A stretch of DNA of 64,000 nucleotides from Escherichia coli (GTDB lineage: Bacteria > Pseudomonadota > Gammaproteobacteria > Enterobacterales > Enterobacteriaceae), in NCBI RefSeq assembly GCF_009931435.1, contig NZ_CP043414.1. One strand, written 5' to 3'. Positions 11,041 to 16,799 of this stretch are shown piece after piece. The stretch's first letter is position 1. The number at the start of each line of letters is the position of its first letter. Made by a program: the position numbers and the translations under genes. The notes under the pieces are model-generated. The model was given only the letters and a program-made list of their open reading frames with translations. It was not told where the DNA came from and did no database searches.

Positions 11041-11587
11041 CGGGGAAGCCATTCTGCTGCGTAACATCACCGTCAGCGCCACCATGCAACTACCGGACAA
11101 AGATATGTCCGGACAGTCAACCAGCACCACGAGCGCCCAGCAGGGAAACAAGGCTAAAGAGCTGCGCGTGTCGGGGGTTATTGATTTTAACGATGAAGCT
11201 ATTCTGACCCGTATTTTTCAGCTTGCGGAGGCAACAGAAAGCAACGGTGCTAAAAAAACATATCGCATTGCTAACGCTACCGCGAAGGCAATCAATATGC
11301 GACAGGGGGTGTTTTCTGGTGGCATTGATGCCACGGAACAACAGGGAAAAATGCACTGGCAGATCACCTTTACTCTCAGGGAAAAATTAAGCGTGCCAGA
11401 GAAAGCATCCGCACGCAGCGGTTCGCAGAAAACCATCGCCAGACAGCAGACCCAGAATGGCAGCGAACAGGTACCAGACAAAGGCATGAATACGCAAAGT
11501 TCGTTCTGGAAAAAAATCAATGATGCCGTTGGCTCTGGTCTGGATGCTGTTGGCATCGGGAGCGTGAAAGAGGAAGGGAAAACATGA
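11012..11587 (+). CDS. tail protein, possibly gpU-like
   Basis: 191 aa; segment LRVSGVIDFND...MHWQITFTLRE loosely resembles the P2 gpU family as I recall it; immediately 5' of a hub-like gene, matching P2 U-D order. Confidence 0.35.
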   Translation: MTQMIVLALDGEAILLRNITVSATMQLPDKDMSGQSTSTTSAQQGNKAKELRVSGVIDFNDEAILTRIFQLAEATESNGAKKTYRIANATAKAINMRQGVFSGGIDATEQQGKMHWQITFTLREKLSVPEKASARSGSQKTIARQQTQNGSEQVPDKGMNTQSSFWKKINDAVGSGLDAVGIGSVKEEGKT

Positions 11588-13281
11588 AATTGATACAACG
11601 CTGCATGATTAATGGCGAACGGGTGGAAATTGCCGATATAAGCCTTGTTCTTACCCTGAATGCTGCCGGTCGTGGCTTCATTTCTGTTAACAATCTGTCA
11701 CCCGAACACAGCCTTGCCGGCGCAATGGTACAAATTGATCTCGGCCGTGACGGTGAAGCATGGCGCTATTTCTCCGGCTACATTGAGCGCGATCAACCTG
11801 CTGAAAATGGCTCACGTCGCCTTTTTATTCGTGAAGCGGCTGCTGTGCTGGATTTTGATTTCCCTTGCTCCATGCAACACCCGACGTTGCGGGGGGTACT
11901 CGATAATCTGGGGCGACAAAGCGGTATCGTTTTTATCACTCCGGATGCGGATTATGCCAGTATACCAACTCCCTACATCACCCACAGCGGCAGCGGAGCA
12001 CAACTGCTCAGCCAACTGGGGCGAGCATTCAGTATCAGCGATTACGTCTGGCACCCTATGCCGGACGGTTCTGTATTTGTGGGAAGCGCAGCTGATTCAC
12101 GATTTGCCAGTATTACAATGCCGGATATTCCGCAACAGTACACACTCGGGCAAAGCGGCGGAAACAGCATCGACATCATGTTTATGGAAACTGTGCGACC
12201 GGGCGTGAACCTACCGGCCGGGCGCATTACCCGTGTAGCCCTCAACAACGAGAAAATGACCCTGACATGGGAGCGCCTTACCGCCACGGGTACCCCTGTT
12301 TCCAAATCACCATTACGCAGACAAATGGAAACACAGTTCCCAGAACTGGCCAGCGGTACGCTACATACCCGGCTGGCGCGCGTCATTGCGCCAACGGAGC
12401 CCACCACCCTGGGCGACGTGGCCGACAGTTTCCGCCCACGCTACGCCGTCGATGTGCAGTTGCTTGATGAGAACGGCAACGATAAAAGCGACACGCCCGT
12501 TTACCCGGCAGTACCGCTCCCCGTCCCCATGGCTGGCAGTGAGGCGGGATGTTTTGCCTACCCACCGGCAGGCACCATCGTGGAAATATCCAACATTGAA
12601 GGACGTCCGGACAAACCCGTTATCAGGCAAATCTTACCCGCTGGCCATAACCTGCCTGATGTAAAGCCCGGCGAACAGCTGCAGCAACAGCGCGCAGAAG
12701 TGTTTCAGCGCGTCACGACTGACGGAAGCTGGCACAGAGAAACCGATCAGCAAATCAGGGAGCATTCAGCCAGACGAACCATTAACAGCGATCAGGAAGA
12801 ACGCACAACAACAACCAGAACAACAACAGTACAGGCAAACGACATAACCAGCGTTCTGGGAACCAGCAAGCTGATGACAGGCCAGACAGAACACATTACT
12901 ACTGGTCATTATGCGATCGCAGCCGGTGAGCATATCCAGATGGTAGCGCAGGATTTGCTGACTAAACTCAAAGGGGCGACATCCACGATTGAGCGCGACC
13001 TTACTGAAAACGTGGGAGGCCGCAGAACATGCCGGGCGGACGGTGGTCTGGAGTTTACAGCCCCGACAGTATTTATTGGTCGCGGTGGCTCACGGGAAAA
13101 ATCCGGACTTAATCTGCTGACGTTGTTGATTGATATTCTGGATCTGGTTCAGTTGCTGGCCACACACACTGCAAACCACACCCACAGCAACACCGGCGCA
13201 CCAACAAACAACAGCGAACTTGCCGCAGACGCCAAACAGGCTACGAGCCTGCGCGAAAAATACGGTGACCTTATCGCCTGA
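11584..13281 (+). CDS. baseplate hub protein, gpD/gp27/VgrG-like
   Basis: 565 aa; N-terminal pattern ...ISLVLTLNAAGRGF...AMVQIDLGRDGEAWRYFSGYIER is typical of Phage_GPD/VgrG N-domains; Thr-rich stretch EERTTTTRTTTVQ; last gene of the tail operon. Confidence 0.5.
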   Translation: MKLIQRCMINGERVEIADISLVLTLNAAGRGFISVNNLSPEHSLAGAMVQIDLGRDGEAWRYFSGYIERDQPAENGSRRLFIREAAAVLDFDFPCSMQHPTLRGVLDNLGRQSGIVFITPDADYASIPTPYITHSGSGAQLLSQLGRAFSISDYVWHPMPDGSVFVGSAADSRFASITMPDIPQQYTLGQSGGNSIDIMFMETVRPGVNLPAGRITRVALNNEKMTLTWERLTATGTPVSKSPLRRQMETQFPELASGTLHTRLARVIAPTEPTTLGDVADSFRPRYAVDVQLLDENGNDKSDTPVYPAVPLPVPMAGSEAGCFAYPPAGTIVEISNIEGRPDKPVIRQILPAGHNLPDVKPGEQLQQQRAEVFQRVTTDGSWHRETDQQIREHSARRTINSDQEERTTTTRTTTVQANDITSVLGTSKLMTGQTEHITTGHYAIAAGEHIQMVAQDLLTKLKGATSTIERDLTENVGGRRTCRADGGLEFTAPTVFIGRGGSREKSGLNLLTLLIDILDLVQLLATHTANHTHSNTGAPTNNSELAADAKQATSLREKYGDLIA

Positions 13282-13880
13282 TCACCGGGCATACCCCCCC
13301 ATAAACGCCCATCACGCAACGCACGGCTCCGGTCGTGCGTTTTCATATCTGCCACCTGATTAATGCGTTCTGCGTGCCATTCTGGCGCTGTATGCGCACA
13401 CCGCGTAAACGGTGTGACGTAAAGCGTGAGGTGACGTAAACCGCGCTACCCCCTCCAACCCGCGGGTTTCGTGTCGAAACAGTTTTTCAGTTTTCTGCCG
13501 TGCAAAAATGACCGCCAGCCCGCGCAGCAACTGAGGGAAAAGCGAAGATCTGAAATTTCACGCTTTGAAATTTTTTGCAGTTTTCAAAGTGGTTTTTACG
13601 ATCGCACAAATGGCCGGAGCAATAAAACCGCATGATATTAAAAGAGTTTTCATACTTTACGCGAGACAAAAAAACGATCACGAAAGGATCGCATCAAACA
13701 GCCATCAAACAAAGAAGGCAGACACGGCGCGGCCTGCACAAAATTAAGCTCCAAAATAAAACTGAAAAAAAGGATCGCAACAAGAAGAAAAGCGCGTAAA
13801 ACGATCGCTGCTGATGTGGCGTTTCTTTATACAAGCTGCTATTTGCGATATGCTGAACACATCAACCTGTGGAGTGCATT

Positions 13881-14507
13881 ATGAAACGAAAATCAAAGTC
13901 TGCTGCCATTGCTGCTATTACTACAGCTCTGACAGCATCACTGGCTCCGGTGCCAGCTAAAAGCACGATACTACCAACAACAGTTATTGAATCCGCGACA
14001 CACGCCAGAGTGGTTTCAATGCTTACATTTGAGCATCATGATGGTCAGGTGTTTCTGCCTCTCGAAGAAGCTATTGAATATATCAACGGGCTGAATGACA
14101 ACATGCGCGCCGCGCTCAATGCAGTCATTGAAGAACGACAGAACAGAGGCAAGGGAGCACTGTTTACTGACAAAACCGCAAAAATCATAAAAATATGCGA
14201 AGAGTCAATTAAGCAGCACACCCGTGTTAAAGAGGCTGTCAAAATTGTAATGGATCCGGATAACCTGGCAAAAATGTATCCGGATAGCCTGGAGCAAAGA
14301 ATCGCCTATCGCAATAAACTGGTTCGTTTTGGTCGGGCAATTGCGCAGGGAGAGTTTATCGCTCGTGATGCCATCAACACCATCAAACGAAGCACCGCAC
14401 CAGACAAAACAACCAGCCTGGGCAATACGCTGTCTGACGGAAATGTGAAAGCAATGATTATTGCCGAGCATAAAAACATGGGACTCCCGGCACCGGAGTT
14501 TTCCTGA
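13881..14507 (+). CDS. hypothetical secreted protein (signal peptide)
   Basis: MKRKSKSAAIAAITTALTASLA-PVP has an n-region, h-region and A-x-A site; about 208 aa; stop overlaps the next ATG (TGATG). Confidence 0.5.
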   Translation: MKRKSKSAAIAAITTALTASLAPVPAKSTILPTTVIESATHARVVSMLTFEHHDGQVFLPLEEAIEYINGLNDNMRAALNAVIEERQNRGKGALFTDKTAKIIKICEESIKQHTRVKEAVKIVMDPDNLAKMYPDSLEQRIAYRNKLVRFGRAIAQGEFIARDAINTIKRSTAPDKTTSLGNTLSDGNVKAMIIAEHKNMGLPAPEFS

Positions 14508-14887
14508 TGGCAAGCAAAGTAAGCATTCATAAAGATGTTGAATACCAGGACATTGCAAAAGTTTACGGAAAGGCTCTGGAAAACTGGTTAAATACCGGTG
14601 TTCTCCCTGACAGATTCGGCAATGAAGGGCAGTGGGAAGATAACGCAAGATTATGTGGTTCGTTTGTATATAAATTACACATAAGACTACCGTCAGAACC
14701 ACCATGGAAGAAAAGCAAAGCCCAAATAGACAGAACTTCAAATATCTATCTGGTTTATACAAGGCACTGGATGGATTATGACAATATACAAATCATCAGC
14801 ATCATGGCCCCAGATGCTCACGAAAAAGCCAAAACTTCTTTCATGGCTGAACTGGAAAGACGGGCTGAAGAATTCCAGAACTCATAA
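14507..14887 (+). CDS. YafO-like toxin family protein
   Basis: 126 aa; GVLPDRFG, KLHIRL, IYLVYTRHW and a C-terminal AE..RRAEEF line up with E. coli YafO as recalled from memory (GVLPDTFG, HIHL, HLVY...). Confidence 0.5.
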   Translation: MASKVSIHKDVEYQDIAKVYGKALENWLNTGVLPDRFGNEGQWEDNARLCGSFVYKLHIRLPSEPPWKKSKAQIDRTSNIYLVYTRHWMDYDNIQIISIMAPDAHEKAKTSFMAELERRAEEFQNS

Positions 14888-14906
14888 ATTGCCTGATTTT
14901 CTCTCA

Positions 14907-14940
14907 GAAACCCGCAGCGTAAAAACTGTGGGTTTTCTTT
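14907..14940 (+). terminator. rho-independent terminator after the YafO-like gene
   Basis: gaaacccgcag...ctgtgggttt hairpin followed by TTTTTC. Confidence 0.5.
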
Positions 14941-15178
14941 TTGCTACCCTGATACGTGAGGGTAGCACTCAAAGTGAGGCAATATGTAGGCAACCTATTT
15001 AATACGTAAAAATTAATGCATTAAATGGATATTTACTAGCATGGGTACTGGCTTAAAATATCACAACCCTGTTTTATAACGTACTGAATTTATTAGGTGT
15101 GACGGTTTTCCAATGGGGCTTCCGACATTACGTTCAGCTGATGCTTTTCTTATGTAACGAGAAGACATATATTGGTAA

Positions 15179-15234
15179 GCGATGAAGCGATGAAGCGATG
15201 AAGCGATGAAGCGATGAAGCGATGAAGCGATGTA
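15179..15234. repeat. 8-bp tandem repeat (GCGATGAA) x6 plus one variant copy (GCGATGTA)
   Basis: Read directly: six perfect head-to-tail units then one variant, about 95 bp upstream of the ATPase gene start. Confidence 0.95.
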
Positions 15235-15251
15235 ACGTCTGTTTGGTTATA

Positions 15252-15296
15252 AACTTCACACTAATAATTTCTAAATGAAATTATTAGTGTGAAGTT
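15252..15296. promoter_or_regulatory. perfect 20-bp-arm inverted repeat (candidate operator or RNA hairpin) upstream of the ATPase gene
   Basis: aacttcacactaataatttc (15252-15271) / gaaattattagtgtgaagtt (15277-15296), 5-nt loop; 33 bp before the ATG at 15330. Confidence 0.6.
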
Positions 15297-15329
15297 GATG
15301 TTTATTGTGATTATAACTAAGGAATTAAA

Positions 15330-16799
15330 ATGAAATTATCTCCAGCAGAATTGAAGTTAGAAAGGGGTAAGGTTCAAGATAATAAATTCAATCAATATGT
15401 TAAACGTATCACATTAAAAAATGTCAGAGGGTTTGATGAGGAAATTGTGGAGTTTAAAACACCAGTTACAGCTCTTATCGGGACTAATGGTGGAGGGAAG
15501 TCGACTATATTAGGTGCTGTAGCTCTCGCTTATAAAAATGTTAAGCCAAGCAAGTTTTTCCCTAAATCATTTTATGGGGATGATTCAATGAGTGATTGGG
15601 AAATTGGATTCGAATTGATTGACAAGCCTATTTCAAAAGATAAAAATATTAACAGGACTGCAAAATTTAAACAGATGAAATGGCGCAGAGATAATTTCCC
15701 AGAGCGAAATGTTGTATATGTAGAAATACAAAGAACTGTTCCTGCAGGCGAACTAACTAAGTTTAATAAATTTTTATCTGGCGATGCTAAACAATTTGAA
15801 GAAAAAAATCTCAACCCTGAGACAATAAAATATTGCTCTGCCGTTTTAGATAAAAAGATAGAAGATTACAGATGTATAATAAATAAGCACGATCCATCTT
15901 CAAGAATGTTTGTAGGTAAGGCAATTAATGGTTCTGGTTATTCTCAGTTCCATTTTGGTGCAGGTGAAGCATCAATAATAGATACTATTGATAGAATAGA
16001 GACTGCTGCTGATAATTCTCTTGTTTTAATTGAAGAAATTGAAAATGGACTGCATCCTGTTGCAGTGCGGTTGTTTGTTAACTATTTGACAAATGTAGCA
16101 AAGAGGAAAAAGCTGCAAATAATATTTACAACACATTCGCAGGATGCAGTAAACGAGCTAGAGCCAGAAGCTGTTTGGGCTTCTATTAACAAAAAAGTAT
16201 GGAATGGTAAACTAAGTATTGAAAGTTTACGCGCTATAACGGGACAGAAGATAAATTCGAAAGTTATATATGTTGAAGATTCTTTTGCAAAAGAGTGGGT
16301 TGAAAATGCGATGGATCGATATATTCCAGAACTAGCCTCAACAATAAAAGTCTACACGGCAGGTGGTTACCCCAGCGTGGTTAAAGTAAGTCAATATCAT
16401 AATGAGAACCCTACTATAAATTATCCATCAATCGCATTAGTTGATGGGGATATTAAAGGTAGACCCGGAACTAAAGATCTGCCTGATAATGCAATGTTCA
16501 TCGGGGATGATTATCCTGACGCTACGGTTTTTCATTATATTGCAAATAACATAGAAGAAAATGCCTCAGTTTTGAGGCAAAGATGTTTGTTAACAAGATT
16601 TGACGCTGAAAAGATTAAATCGGAAGTTGAGAGTGTGATGCATTCTGCATGTGATCACCATGTTTATTTTACTAGATTAAGTGATAAATTAGATTTTGCC
16701 TCAGAACTATTCATTCGAGCTGGTATGATAGATTTATTTAATGAGAAAAATCCAGAATTTTGGTCCCCAATTATGGACTTCATTAAAAAAGGTCTATAG
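15330..16799 (+). CDS. ABC-type ATPase fused to a Toprim/DUF4435-like domain (OLD-family or fused-PARIS-like candidate defence nuclease)
   Basis: 489 aa; Walker A GTNGGGKST (K57), signature-like SGYSQFHFGAGEAS, Walker B LVLIEE (E235/E236), H-loop FTTHS; C-terminal VIYVED (E316) and ALVDGD (D372/D374) fit Toprim Glu and DxD; strongly AT-rich; own RBS and terminator. Confidence 0.6.
   Translation: MKLSPAELKLERGKVQDNKFNQYVKRITLKNVRGFDEEIVEFKTPVTALIGTNGGGKSTILGAVALAYKNVKPSKFFPKSFYGDDSMSDWEIGFELIDKPISKDKNINRTAKFKQMKWRRDNFPERNVVYVEIQRTVPAGELTKFNKFLSGDAKQFEEKNLNPETIKYCSAVLDKKIEDYRCIINKHDPSSRMFVGKAINGSGYSQFHFGAGEASIIDTIDRIETAADNSLVLIEEIENGLHPVAVRLFVNYLTNVAKRKKLQIIFTTHSQDAVNELEPEAVWASINKKVWNGKLSIESLRAITGQKINSKVIYVEDSFAKEWVENAMDRYIPELASTIKVYTAGGYPSVVKVSQYHNENPTINYPSIALVDGDIKGRPGTKDLPDNAMFIGDDYPDATVFHYIANNIEENASVLRQRCLLTRFDAEKIKSEVESVMHSACDHHVYFTRLSDKLDFASELFIRAGMIDLFNEKNPEFWSPIMDFIKKGL

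Follow-up and report, generated by a model that had tools for sequence, protein, structure and literature searches.

The toxin YafO is, to our knowledge, among the least understood members of the RelE superfamily, and YafN is the only antitoxin for it that we know to have been characterised. Leplae et al. (2011) found YafO toxins paired with Phd-type and with unclassified partners and did not see YafO on phages (PMC3141249), and a 2025 review of the RelE/ParE superfamily lists YafO with an antitoxin–toxin gene order and no further detail of its partner (PMC11980606). Here we describe a two-gene cassette located in a prophage of Escherichia coli, within a window of 64,000 nucleotides (nt) of contig NZ_CP043414.1 (assembly GCF_009931435.1), which is the whole stretch of DNA that was analysed. 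The second open reading frame of the cassette (ORF-B) encodes a putative YafO-type toxin of 126 amino acids (aa), and the first (ORF-A) encodes a 208-aa partner protein, in all likelihood an antitoxin of a new kind. On balance, we think it probable that the two genes form a non-canonical type II-like YafO toxin–antitoxin cassette, with an antitoxin from a new family of ~200-aa proteins, that is carried as accessory cargo of the prophage. Literature searches for such a YafO partner, or for an antitoxin with a signal peptide, returned nothing relevant and no description of the ORF-A family.

Profile searches place ORF-B in the YafO family, which bears out a call that a first-pass annotation of the window had made. 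ORF-B matched Pfam YafO_toxin (PF13957) over model positions 2–101 of 101 (E = 1.4e-27, 96.1 bits) and phrog_1651 (E = 2.6e-24). YafO of E. coli K-12 was 31% identical to ORF-B in BLASTP (E = 3e-9), and the NCBIfam YafO equivalog NF007377 scored 42.7 bits, below its cut-off of 153 bits; from these two results we regard ORF-B as a member of the family and not as an orthologue of YafO. Residues G38, S52, H58, I59, R76, L82, V83, P102 and H105 are invariant across the ORF-B subfamily and K-12 YafO, as are A108, A120, E121 and F123. A search of PDB sequences with ORF-B gave no match, and the PDB holds no YafO-family structure. We know of no experimental definition of the catalytic residues of YafO, so activity is unreadable from the sequence. 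This, together with a score far below the equivalog cut-off, would be compatible with a reading in which ORF-B has the YafO fold without toxicity and the pair constitutes a two-subunit RNA-binding or regulatory factor, or a two-part defence effector. We find this reading hard to credit. ORF-B is strongly constrained (52–99% identity across genera), and its invariant positions include the His, Arg and Glu residues that it has in common with K-12 YafO. In addition, the YafO-like gene of Photorhabdus sp. CRCIA-P01 (L026 4121–4501) carries an in-frame stop codon (W88*) beside an intact partner gene, and a broken toxin next to an intact partner is the usual pattern in which toxin–antitoxin loci decay.

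The two genes are tightly coupled. The ORF-A stop codon (TGA, 14505–14507) and the ORF-B start codon (ATG, 14507–14509) share a single base at 14507, forming TGATG within TTTTCCTGATGGCA, exactly the overlap that the first-pass annotation had reported. Both start codons are preceded by a GGAG ribosome-binding site, at 13871–13874 for ORF-A (6 nt 5' of its ATG) and at 14495–14498 for ORF-B (8 nt 5' of its ATG), which supports both the ATG start at 13881 and translational coupling. The ORF-A protein, counted from this ATG, begins MKRKSKS; an in-frame GTG four codons 5' of it is likewise open. We searched the cassette for a hidden small antitoxin ORF and found none, the space upstream of ORF-A being only ~100 bp, and no additional ORF or Rfam RNA is present inside the cassette.

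The pairing of the two genes is strict. Every full-length relative of ORF-A that we inspected has a PF13957 gene directly downstream, separated from it, in 30-plus loci, by a one-base stop/start overlap or by a gap of 5–11 nt, and this pairing persists at 22–28% identity (P0092, P0104, P0089 and P0097). Paired loci occur in Escherichia, Trabulsiella, Buttiauxella, Enterobacter, Morganella, Proteus, Photorhabdus, Serratia and other source genomes, and the recurrence of the same gene pair in so many genera argues for an association beyond chance. The pairwise identities of ORF-A and ORF-B were correlated over 14 loci (r = 0.85, Mantel p <= 0.0002). Mean identity over these loci was 40% for ORF-A versus 61% for ORF-B, which indicates that the partner evolves faster. 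Antitoxins typically evolve faster than their toxins.

This pattern bears on another explanation, namely that ORF-A is an unrelated secreted or periplasmic cargo protein of the prophage, such as a superinfection-exclusion factor, that does not neutralise ORF-B, the latter being restrained by a chromosomal antitoxin acting in trans, by low expression or by weak toxicity. A signal-like N terminus, described below, and the failure to find a DNA-binding or known antitoxin domain in ORF-A would suit such a protein, and many prophage exclusion proteins are envelope proteins. We nevertheless consider this explanation very unlikely, because adjacency and coupling hold down to 22% identity, including in non-phage islets that contain nothing else, and because ORF-A and ORF-B co-diverge. 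Moreover, ORF-A is unlike YafN, and the cassette occurs in genera in which a trans-acting yafN is not guaranteed.

To follow the spread of the pair, we compared its genomic settings. In E. coli, a segment of 1,170 bp (13781–14950 of the window) occurs in two settings, either beside raiA or after ogr in P2-like prophages located by serS. The cassette is 98% identical to that of the serS-adjacent P2-like prophages (L002), and, apart from a fragment of a tail gene, the flanks are unrelated. This fragment, a pseudogene located in front of the cassette in the P2-like prophage (L002 6731–7009), corresponds to the middle of a 565-aa tail-region gene of the window (11584–13281; ...ILPAGHNLPDVKPGEQLQQQRAEVFQRV...), and a piece of the tail gene seems to have been transferred along with the cassette. 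The full cassette was found in 22 of 5,426 complete E. coli genomes, with both genes present each time. Beyond E. coli, the pair follows ogr in a P2-like prophage of Serratia, and in a metagenomic prophage (L036 2362–3027) it directly adjoins a hicA–hicB pair within a cluster of baseplate and tail genes, so that two toxin–antitoxin-like pairs lie together among structural genes. In Morganella it forms a bare two-gene islet between rne and sbcB; other bare chromosomal islets lie beside a glyceraldehyde-3-phosphate dehydrogenase (gapA-like) gene and beside a gene encoding a ThiI domain (thiI-like). The same pair is thus found in P2-like and other prophages and also in chromosomal islets, which answers the question of conservation in other prophages that the first-pass annotation had raised. 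The cassette is a horizontally mobile, self-contained unit, present in at least two unrelated prophage types plus chromosomal islets, and it is not specific to this prophage.

Truncated relatives of ORF-A (150–159 aa), which do not have the signal-like start, are solitary and have no YafO gene (Table 1). P0036 is found in P2-like prophages, between gpD and ogr; P0101 belongs to a mobile element that also has genes for a P2-type capsid and a Toprim/primase-like protein; and P0108 has housekeeping genes as neighbours. Such relatives may be what is left of decayed loci, or orphan antitoxins that act in counter-defence.

The family membership of ORF-B, the gene architecture, the strict pairing, the mobility and the co-divergence were all computed directly. 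The locus has the gene layout of type II systems, in that the genes are adjacent, co-oriented, overlapping, conserved as a pair and mobile. By contrast, ORF-A does not appear to be a DNA-binding, autoregulating antitoxin of the kind by which type II systems are also defined. Searches of Pfam, NCBIfam and PHROGs gave no match to ORF-A, and a search of PDB sequences with an ORF-A profile found no relative. BLASTP produced no alignment between ORF-A and YafN. Neither Phd/YefM nor any other Pfam domain was detected in ORF-A or 31 relatives, and scans of ORF-A with 10–31 relatives against Pfam, NCBIfam, PHROGs and PADLOC returned nothing meaningful. Helix–turn–helix (HTH), ribbon–helix–helix (RHH), AbrB and Phd domains were sought in ORF-A by Pfam and by fold search, and none was found. 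These results agree with two statements of the first-pass annotation, that the upstream protein has no obvious DNA-binding fold and that it stands in the place of a small antitoxin of the RelB/DinJ type without being one; the same holds for the Phd type. Matches to RusA and Y01A in the family searches had E > 0.2 and were dismissed as chance, and a ThsB/TIR match to ORF-A in PADLOC (14 bits, E = 0.0075), which falls on a helical stretch, was likewise judged to be chance.

In RefSeq/PGAP and UniProt, relatives of ORF-A (P0003–P0035) carry the name 'iron-sulfur cluster assembly scaffold protein SufA'. We rejected a SufA/IscA identity, as ORF-A and 31 relatives gave no HesB/IscA domain and no NCBIfam match; judging from these profiles, the name is a propagated annotation error. 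The family is very small: it comprises 39 clusters at 90% identity, and a set of 1.84 billion proteins contains 32 of its representatives at the 50% level. A scan with our family alignment (A1) found 8 loci among about 100,000 species genomes, and IMG/VR contained 10 family loci. No ORF-A relative was found among cultured phages, and a plasmid collection contained a single one, on a Pantoea megaplasmid. All members belong to Enterobacterales or Vibrio. Three blocks of the protein are conserved: LAPVPAxS (residues 21–28), FGRAxA (150–155) and PPxKT...(A/S)EHKxLGLxxPxF (174–207). In the last of these, E196 and H197 are invariant and P174, L200, G201 and L202 are nearly so.

To explore how ORF-A could act on ORF-B, we modelled the proteins with AlphaFold2 (AF2). 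The ORF-A monomer was predicted with a mean predicted local distance difference test score (pLDDT) of 71. It starts with a helix (4–18) and a strand (21–25) that pairs with a second strand (56–60), residues 27–54 being disordered; three long helices over residues 61–171, a disordered linker and a C-terminal helix (186–199) follow. Fold searches with this model returned just generic helical hairpins and pointed to no DNA-binding fold. We then fused the two proteins as A-(GGGGS)6-B and modelled the fusion with AF2 from a paired alignment of 14 loci supplemented with unpaired rows. The fused model had a mean pLDDT of 81 and a predicted template modelling score (pTM) of 0.79 despite 57 disordered residues (the linker and residues 29–53). 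The pLDDT of ORF-A residues 171–200 rose from 53–79 in the monomer to 87–93 in the fusion, and that of residues 11–20 rose from 74 to 90. A high pTM across halves joined by a floppy linker suggests that the two proteins are confidently placed against each other, and from this score and the changes in pLDDT we infer an interface between ORF-A and ORF-B. The C-terminal segment of ORF-A (residues 172–208) is its predicted toxin-binding element. The confidence of the fused model also argues against the view of ORF-A as unrelated cargo. A Foldseek search of the PDB with the fused model gave nothing significant.

Distant pairs in phages point to the same C-terminal segment. A tblastn search of cultured phages with ORF-B identified YafO-like genes of 25–33% identity in CUS-3, two Klebsiella phages and Tbat2_3, and the reported absence of YafO from phages is now outdated. 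In the P22-like phage CUS-3 and the Flyfo siphovirus Tbat2_3, the genes immediately upstream, overlapping or abutting, encode hypothetical proteins of 199 aa and 190 aa, respectively (Table 1). The ends of these partners, ...SHKRFGMEAPKW and ...SHILLGAEPPNW, resemble that of ORF-A, ...AEHKNMGLPAPEF, and contain the motif SHxxxGxxxPxW/F. Comparison of the ORF-A profile with the CUS-3-type partners by hhalign supported homology over the last ~50 columns (E = 7e-5, probability 62%). No ORF-A-like C terminus was seen in YafN, and no signal-like N terminus in the CUS-3 and Tbat2_3 partners. That these partners occupy the same position without such a start also speaks against a secreted cargo protein. 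As far as these alignments go, a ~200-aa helical partner with this C-terminal motif is a recurrent companion of a YafO clade. The CUS-3 pair is located in the immI/mnt moron region of that phage.

The N terminus of ORF-A has a different character. A signal-like start was assessed with our own crude heuristic filter for n-, h- and c-regions, which was passed by ORF-A and by 21 of 23 relatives; the same filter was passed by 5 of the 87 ORFs of at least 100 aa in the window, among them that of the lipoprotein BamD. The N termini of the family carry a net charge of +1 to +4 ahead of a hydrophobic stretch of ~14 residues (mean Kyte–Doolittle value 1.1–2.2). Every member then has A-P-V-P-A, in which V occupies –3 and A –1 and which ends at residue 21–26. 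Conservation within the protein is highest at LAPVPAxS, with a majority frequency of 0.92 versus 0.47–0.68 elsewhere in ORF-A, and this segment is unchanging as protein while its codons are saturated with synonymous changes. To judge from the alignment, signal peptidase would not require so strong a constraint. In the AF2 model, too, the segment is included in the fold, with a pLDDT of 90 for the N-terminal helix and residues 21–25 paired with residues 56–60. The statement of the first-pass annotation that ORF-A has an apparent Sec signal peptide holds for the n/h/c architecture, as seen by the heuristic filter; the strong conservation of LAPVPAxS and the inclusion of the N terminus in the predicted fold argue against a simple signal. 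We rejected an internal start at Met47, which would yield a signal-less isoform, as this Met is not conserved. The N-terminal segment is a feature specific to the subfamily of the window, the distant CUS-3-type partners having no signal-like start.

One possible explanation for this N terminus is an export-coupled module, in which the ORF-A precursor would neutralise the toxin in the cytoplasm and would be continually depleted through export and cleavage by signal peptidase, in place of proteolysis by Lon or Clp. Release of the toxin would then reflect translation and, for instance when a phage infects, the condition of the Sec machinery or of the membrane potential. Several features are consistent with this. 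In 21 of 23 members the tripartite signal architecture is found at a constant distance from the start, the sequence of the h-region changes but remains hydrophobic, and V –3 and A –1 precede a poorly conserved, disordered stretch rich in S, T and P. The absence of this N terminus from CUS-3-type partners would make it an added regulatory feature outside the neutralising core, and the cassette occupies defence and moron slots of prophages. However, LAPVPAxS is conserved far beyond what recognition by signal peptidase would require, and AF2 places the N-terminal helix and the 21–25/56–60 strand pair as if within the fold. Our literature searches turned up no precedent for an export-coupled antitoxin, and we know of none. 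We therefore regard an export-coupled module as unlikely. In the strongest form of the proposal, ORF-A would be the first genuine Sec-substrate antitoxin: export, together with cleavage at the invariant APVPA, would determine its cytoplasmic level in place of proteolysis and would thereby link the release of a YafO-type RNase to secretion or membrane potential. We would call this form decidedly doubtful. If it were true, a prophage could sense, through an export-set antitoxin level, an incoming phage that perturbs the envelope.

Some of these observations weigh against a type II-like cassette with ORF-A as its antitoxin. The start of ORF-A looks like a cleavable Sec signal, and if ORF-A were efficiently exported it could not neutralise a cytoplasmic toxin by stable binding. 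The homology of the C-terminal motif to CUS-3-type partners is modest, with an hhalign probability of 62%. The alignment used for the fused model was deeper than that used for the monomer, and part of the gain in pLDDT may stem from this depth. The proposal of a non-canonical toxin–antitoxin system in the first-pass annotation is thus supported in part, in that the locus is a conserved, coupled, prophage-carried unit of a YafO_toxin member and an unusual partner, just the layout to be expected of such a system.

In our preferred reading, a toxin–antitoxin cassette, we infer the toxicity of ORF-B, direct binding of the two proteins, the functions of the two ends of ORF-A and what the pair does biologically as follows. 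ORF-B, as a member of the RelE/ParE superfamily, would block translation by cutting mRNA, and ORF-A would be its cognate protein antitoxin. ORF-A would be translated first, and ORF-B, coupled to it through TGATG, would be made solely together with its partner. Neutralisation would occur mainly through docking of the C-terminal segment PPxKT...EHKxLGLxxPxF on the toxin, with the three-helix core of ORF-A probably serving as a scaffold. No DNA-binding domain is recognisable in ORF-A, so we would not expect classical autorepression. The signal-like N terminus would probably set the localisation or turnover of the antitoxin, through membrane or Sec targeting or as a degron, and not contribute to neutralisation. 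In the prophage, where it occupies an accessory slot beside another defence gene, the cassette may serve addiction, abortive infection or both.

The surroundings of the cassette agree with the placement between tail genes and a defence gene given in the first-pass annotation, as does the terminator that it had assigned to the pair, a stem-loop with a T-run (Table 1). Its upstream neighbours are genes for the tail and baseplate of a myovirus-type prophage. Downstream of it, a gene at 15330..16799 encodes a 489-aa ATP-dependent nuclease that matches the PADLOC candidate system HEC-04 nearly end to end (676 bits); after this gene come part of a methyltransferase gene and, from the host, raiA and bamD. 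A related genome has the HEC-04 nuclease followed by a truncated DNA methyltransferase, raiA and bamD. The HEC-04 region marks a defence and accessory-gene island at the end of the prophage. ORF-B itself had no match in PADLOC 2.0.

The predicted promoter of the cassette was found by our own hexamer scan and was not among the sites listed by a stricter promoter scan; TTCTTTATAC...TATxCT recurs, equally far from the ATG, in the diverged loci of Morganella (L003) and Buttiauxella (L023). No clear operator palindrome was found upstream of ORF-A. A 9-nt inverted repeat (13785–13827) was considered as an operator and rejected, as it resembles instead the terminator of an ancestral upstream gene. 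Just within the left boundary of the cassette, a shared ORF end, ...KKKSA*, is followed by a short stem-loop and T-run (13806–13827), which has the look of a terminator from an ancestral upstream gene co-transferred with the cassette. A promoter-like site on the minus strand within ORF-A (14271–14244) was taken as chance, 6 such sites having been found against 4.2 expected.

Between the cassette terminator and the HEC-04 gene, we observed a perfect octanucleotide tandem repeat (AAGCGATG) of seven copies (15177–15232). Strain 7_33_46A has nine copies at the same place (L001 10778–10849), so that copy number varies between strains. For the defence gene that follows, the repeat could act as a spacer or provide phase variation. 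About 35 nt 5' of the HEC-04 start lies a perfect palindrome (15252–15296), whose 20-bp arms (AACTTCACACTAATAATTTC / GAAATTATTAGTGTGAAGTT) flank a 5-nt loop; it overlaps promoter-like hexamers on both strands and could be an operator or a terminator. An Rfam scan of 13200–15400 gave just two sub-threshold matches to microRNA models, both on this palindrome and both attributed to chance.

Table 1. Coordinates of the cassette and its parts in the window, and of related loci in their own sequences
Feature	Position	Strand	Basis
ORF-A, 208-aa helical partner protein, putative antitoxin of a new family	13881..14507	+	ORF call, Shine–Dalgarno sequence, strict pairing
ORF-B, 126-aa YafO-family toxin, putative mRNA endoribonuclease	14507..14887	+	Pfam PF13957, phrog_1651
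Two-gene mobile cassette (promoter, ORF-A, ORF-B, terminator)	13781..14950	+	Stretch shared with P2-like prophages
Predicted sigma-70-type promoter	13826..13854	+	–35 TTTATA 13826-13831, 17-nt spacer, –10 TATGCT 13849-13854
ORF-A residues 1–28, signal-peptide-like N terminus	13881..13964	+	Basic n-region, hydrophobic h-region, LAPVPAxS at 21–28
ORF-A residues 172–208, conserved C-terminal motif, predicted toxin-binding element	14394..14504	+	Alignments, AF2 models
Intrinsic-terminator-like stem-loop and T-run, inside the shared cassette	14907-14936 (feature limits 14907..14945)	+	11-pair GC-containing stem GAAACCCGCAG...CTGTGGGTTTT, then CTTTTT
Distant pair, CUS-3 (ECRS218_0007/0008)	L042 1217-2220		
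Distant pair, Tbat2_3	L043 1221-2211		
Loci of truncated ORF-A relatives	L008 4001-4453; L039 3001-3480; L037 86-565		

These results define a second partner family, unrelated to YafN and strictly linked to a prophage clade of YafO. They also offer a candidate C-terminal neutralisation motif that is common to CUS-3-type pairs, and an N-terminal signal-like segment that is under strong selection. Should ORF-A be confirmed as an antitoxin, it would represent a new antitoxin fold without a DNA-binding domain, and a widely propagated "SufA" misannotation would be corrected. Should its N terminus function in export, it would provide a new route to a labile antitoxin and couple the toxin to envelope stress. 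As the cassette sits in accessory slots, by HEC-04 here and after ogr in P2-like prophages, an anti-phage role is directly testable.

Among known systems, yafN–yafO of the E. coli K-12 dinB operon is one of the closest: its toxin belongs to PF13957, its genes are in antitoxin-then-toxin order with very tight spacing, and its toxin is small, as is ORF-B (about 126–132 residues), with shared invariant His, Arg and Glu. It differs in its partner, which is the 97-aa YafN and not a 208-aa protein; ORF-A is not similar to YafN and has neither a Phd/YefM fold nor a C terminus like that of YafN. It differs also in setting, as the dinB operon is SOS-regulated, whereas the present cassette is found on prophages and mobile islets. 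The pairs of CUS-3 and Tbat2_3, which are uncharacterised as well, are similar in having a YafO-like gene directly downstream of a hypothetical helical protein with a similar C terminus. Unlike ORF-A, their partners have neither the signal-like N terminus nor LAPVPAxS, and homology is limited to the last ~50 residues. The likeness to toxin–antitoxin–chaperone (TAC) systems, which have a SecB-like chaperone, is conceptual only: there, the stability of the antitoxin is tied to a component of a secretion-chaperone family (PMC11980606), whereas here there is no third gene and the putative link to Sec is the signal-like N terminus of ORF-A alone. The known antitoxins of RelE/ParE modules are cytoplasmic and have RHH, HTH, Phd or AbrB domains, whereas ORF-A has none of these and has a signal-like start. 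In the combination of one toxin fold with unrelated antitoxin families, and in a mobile location in prophages or defence islands, the cassette resembles other type II modules of the RelE/ParE superfamily (PMC11980606, PMC3141249).

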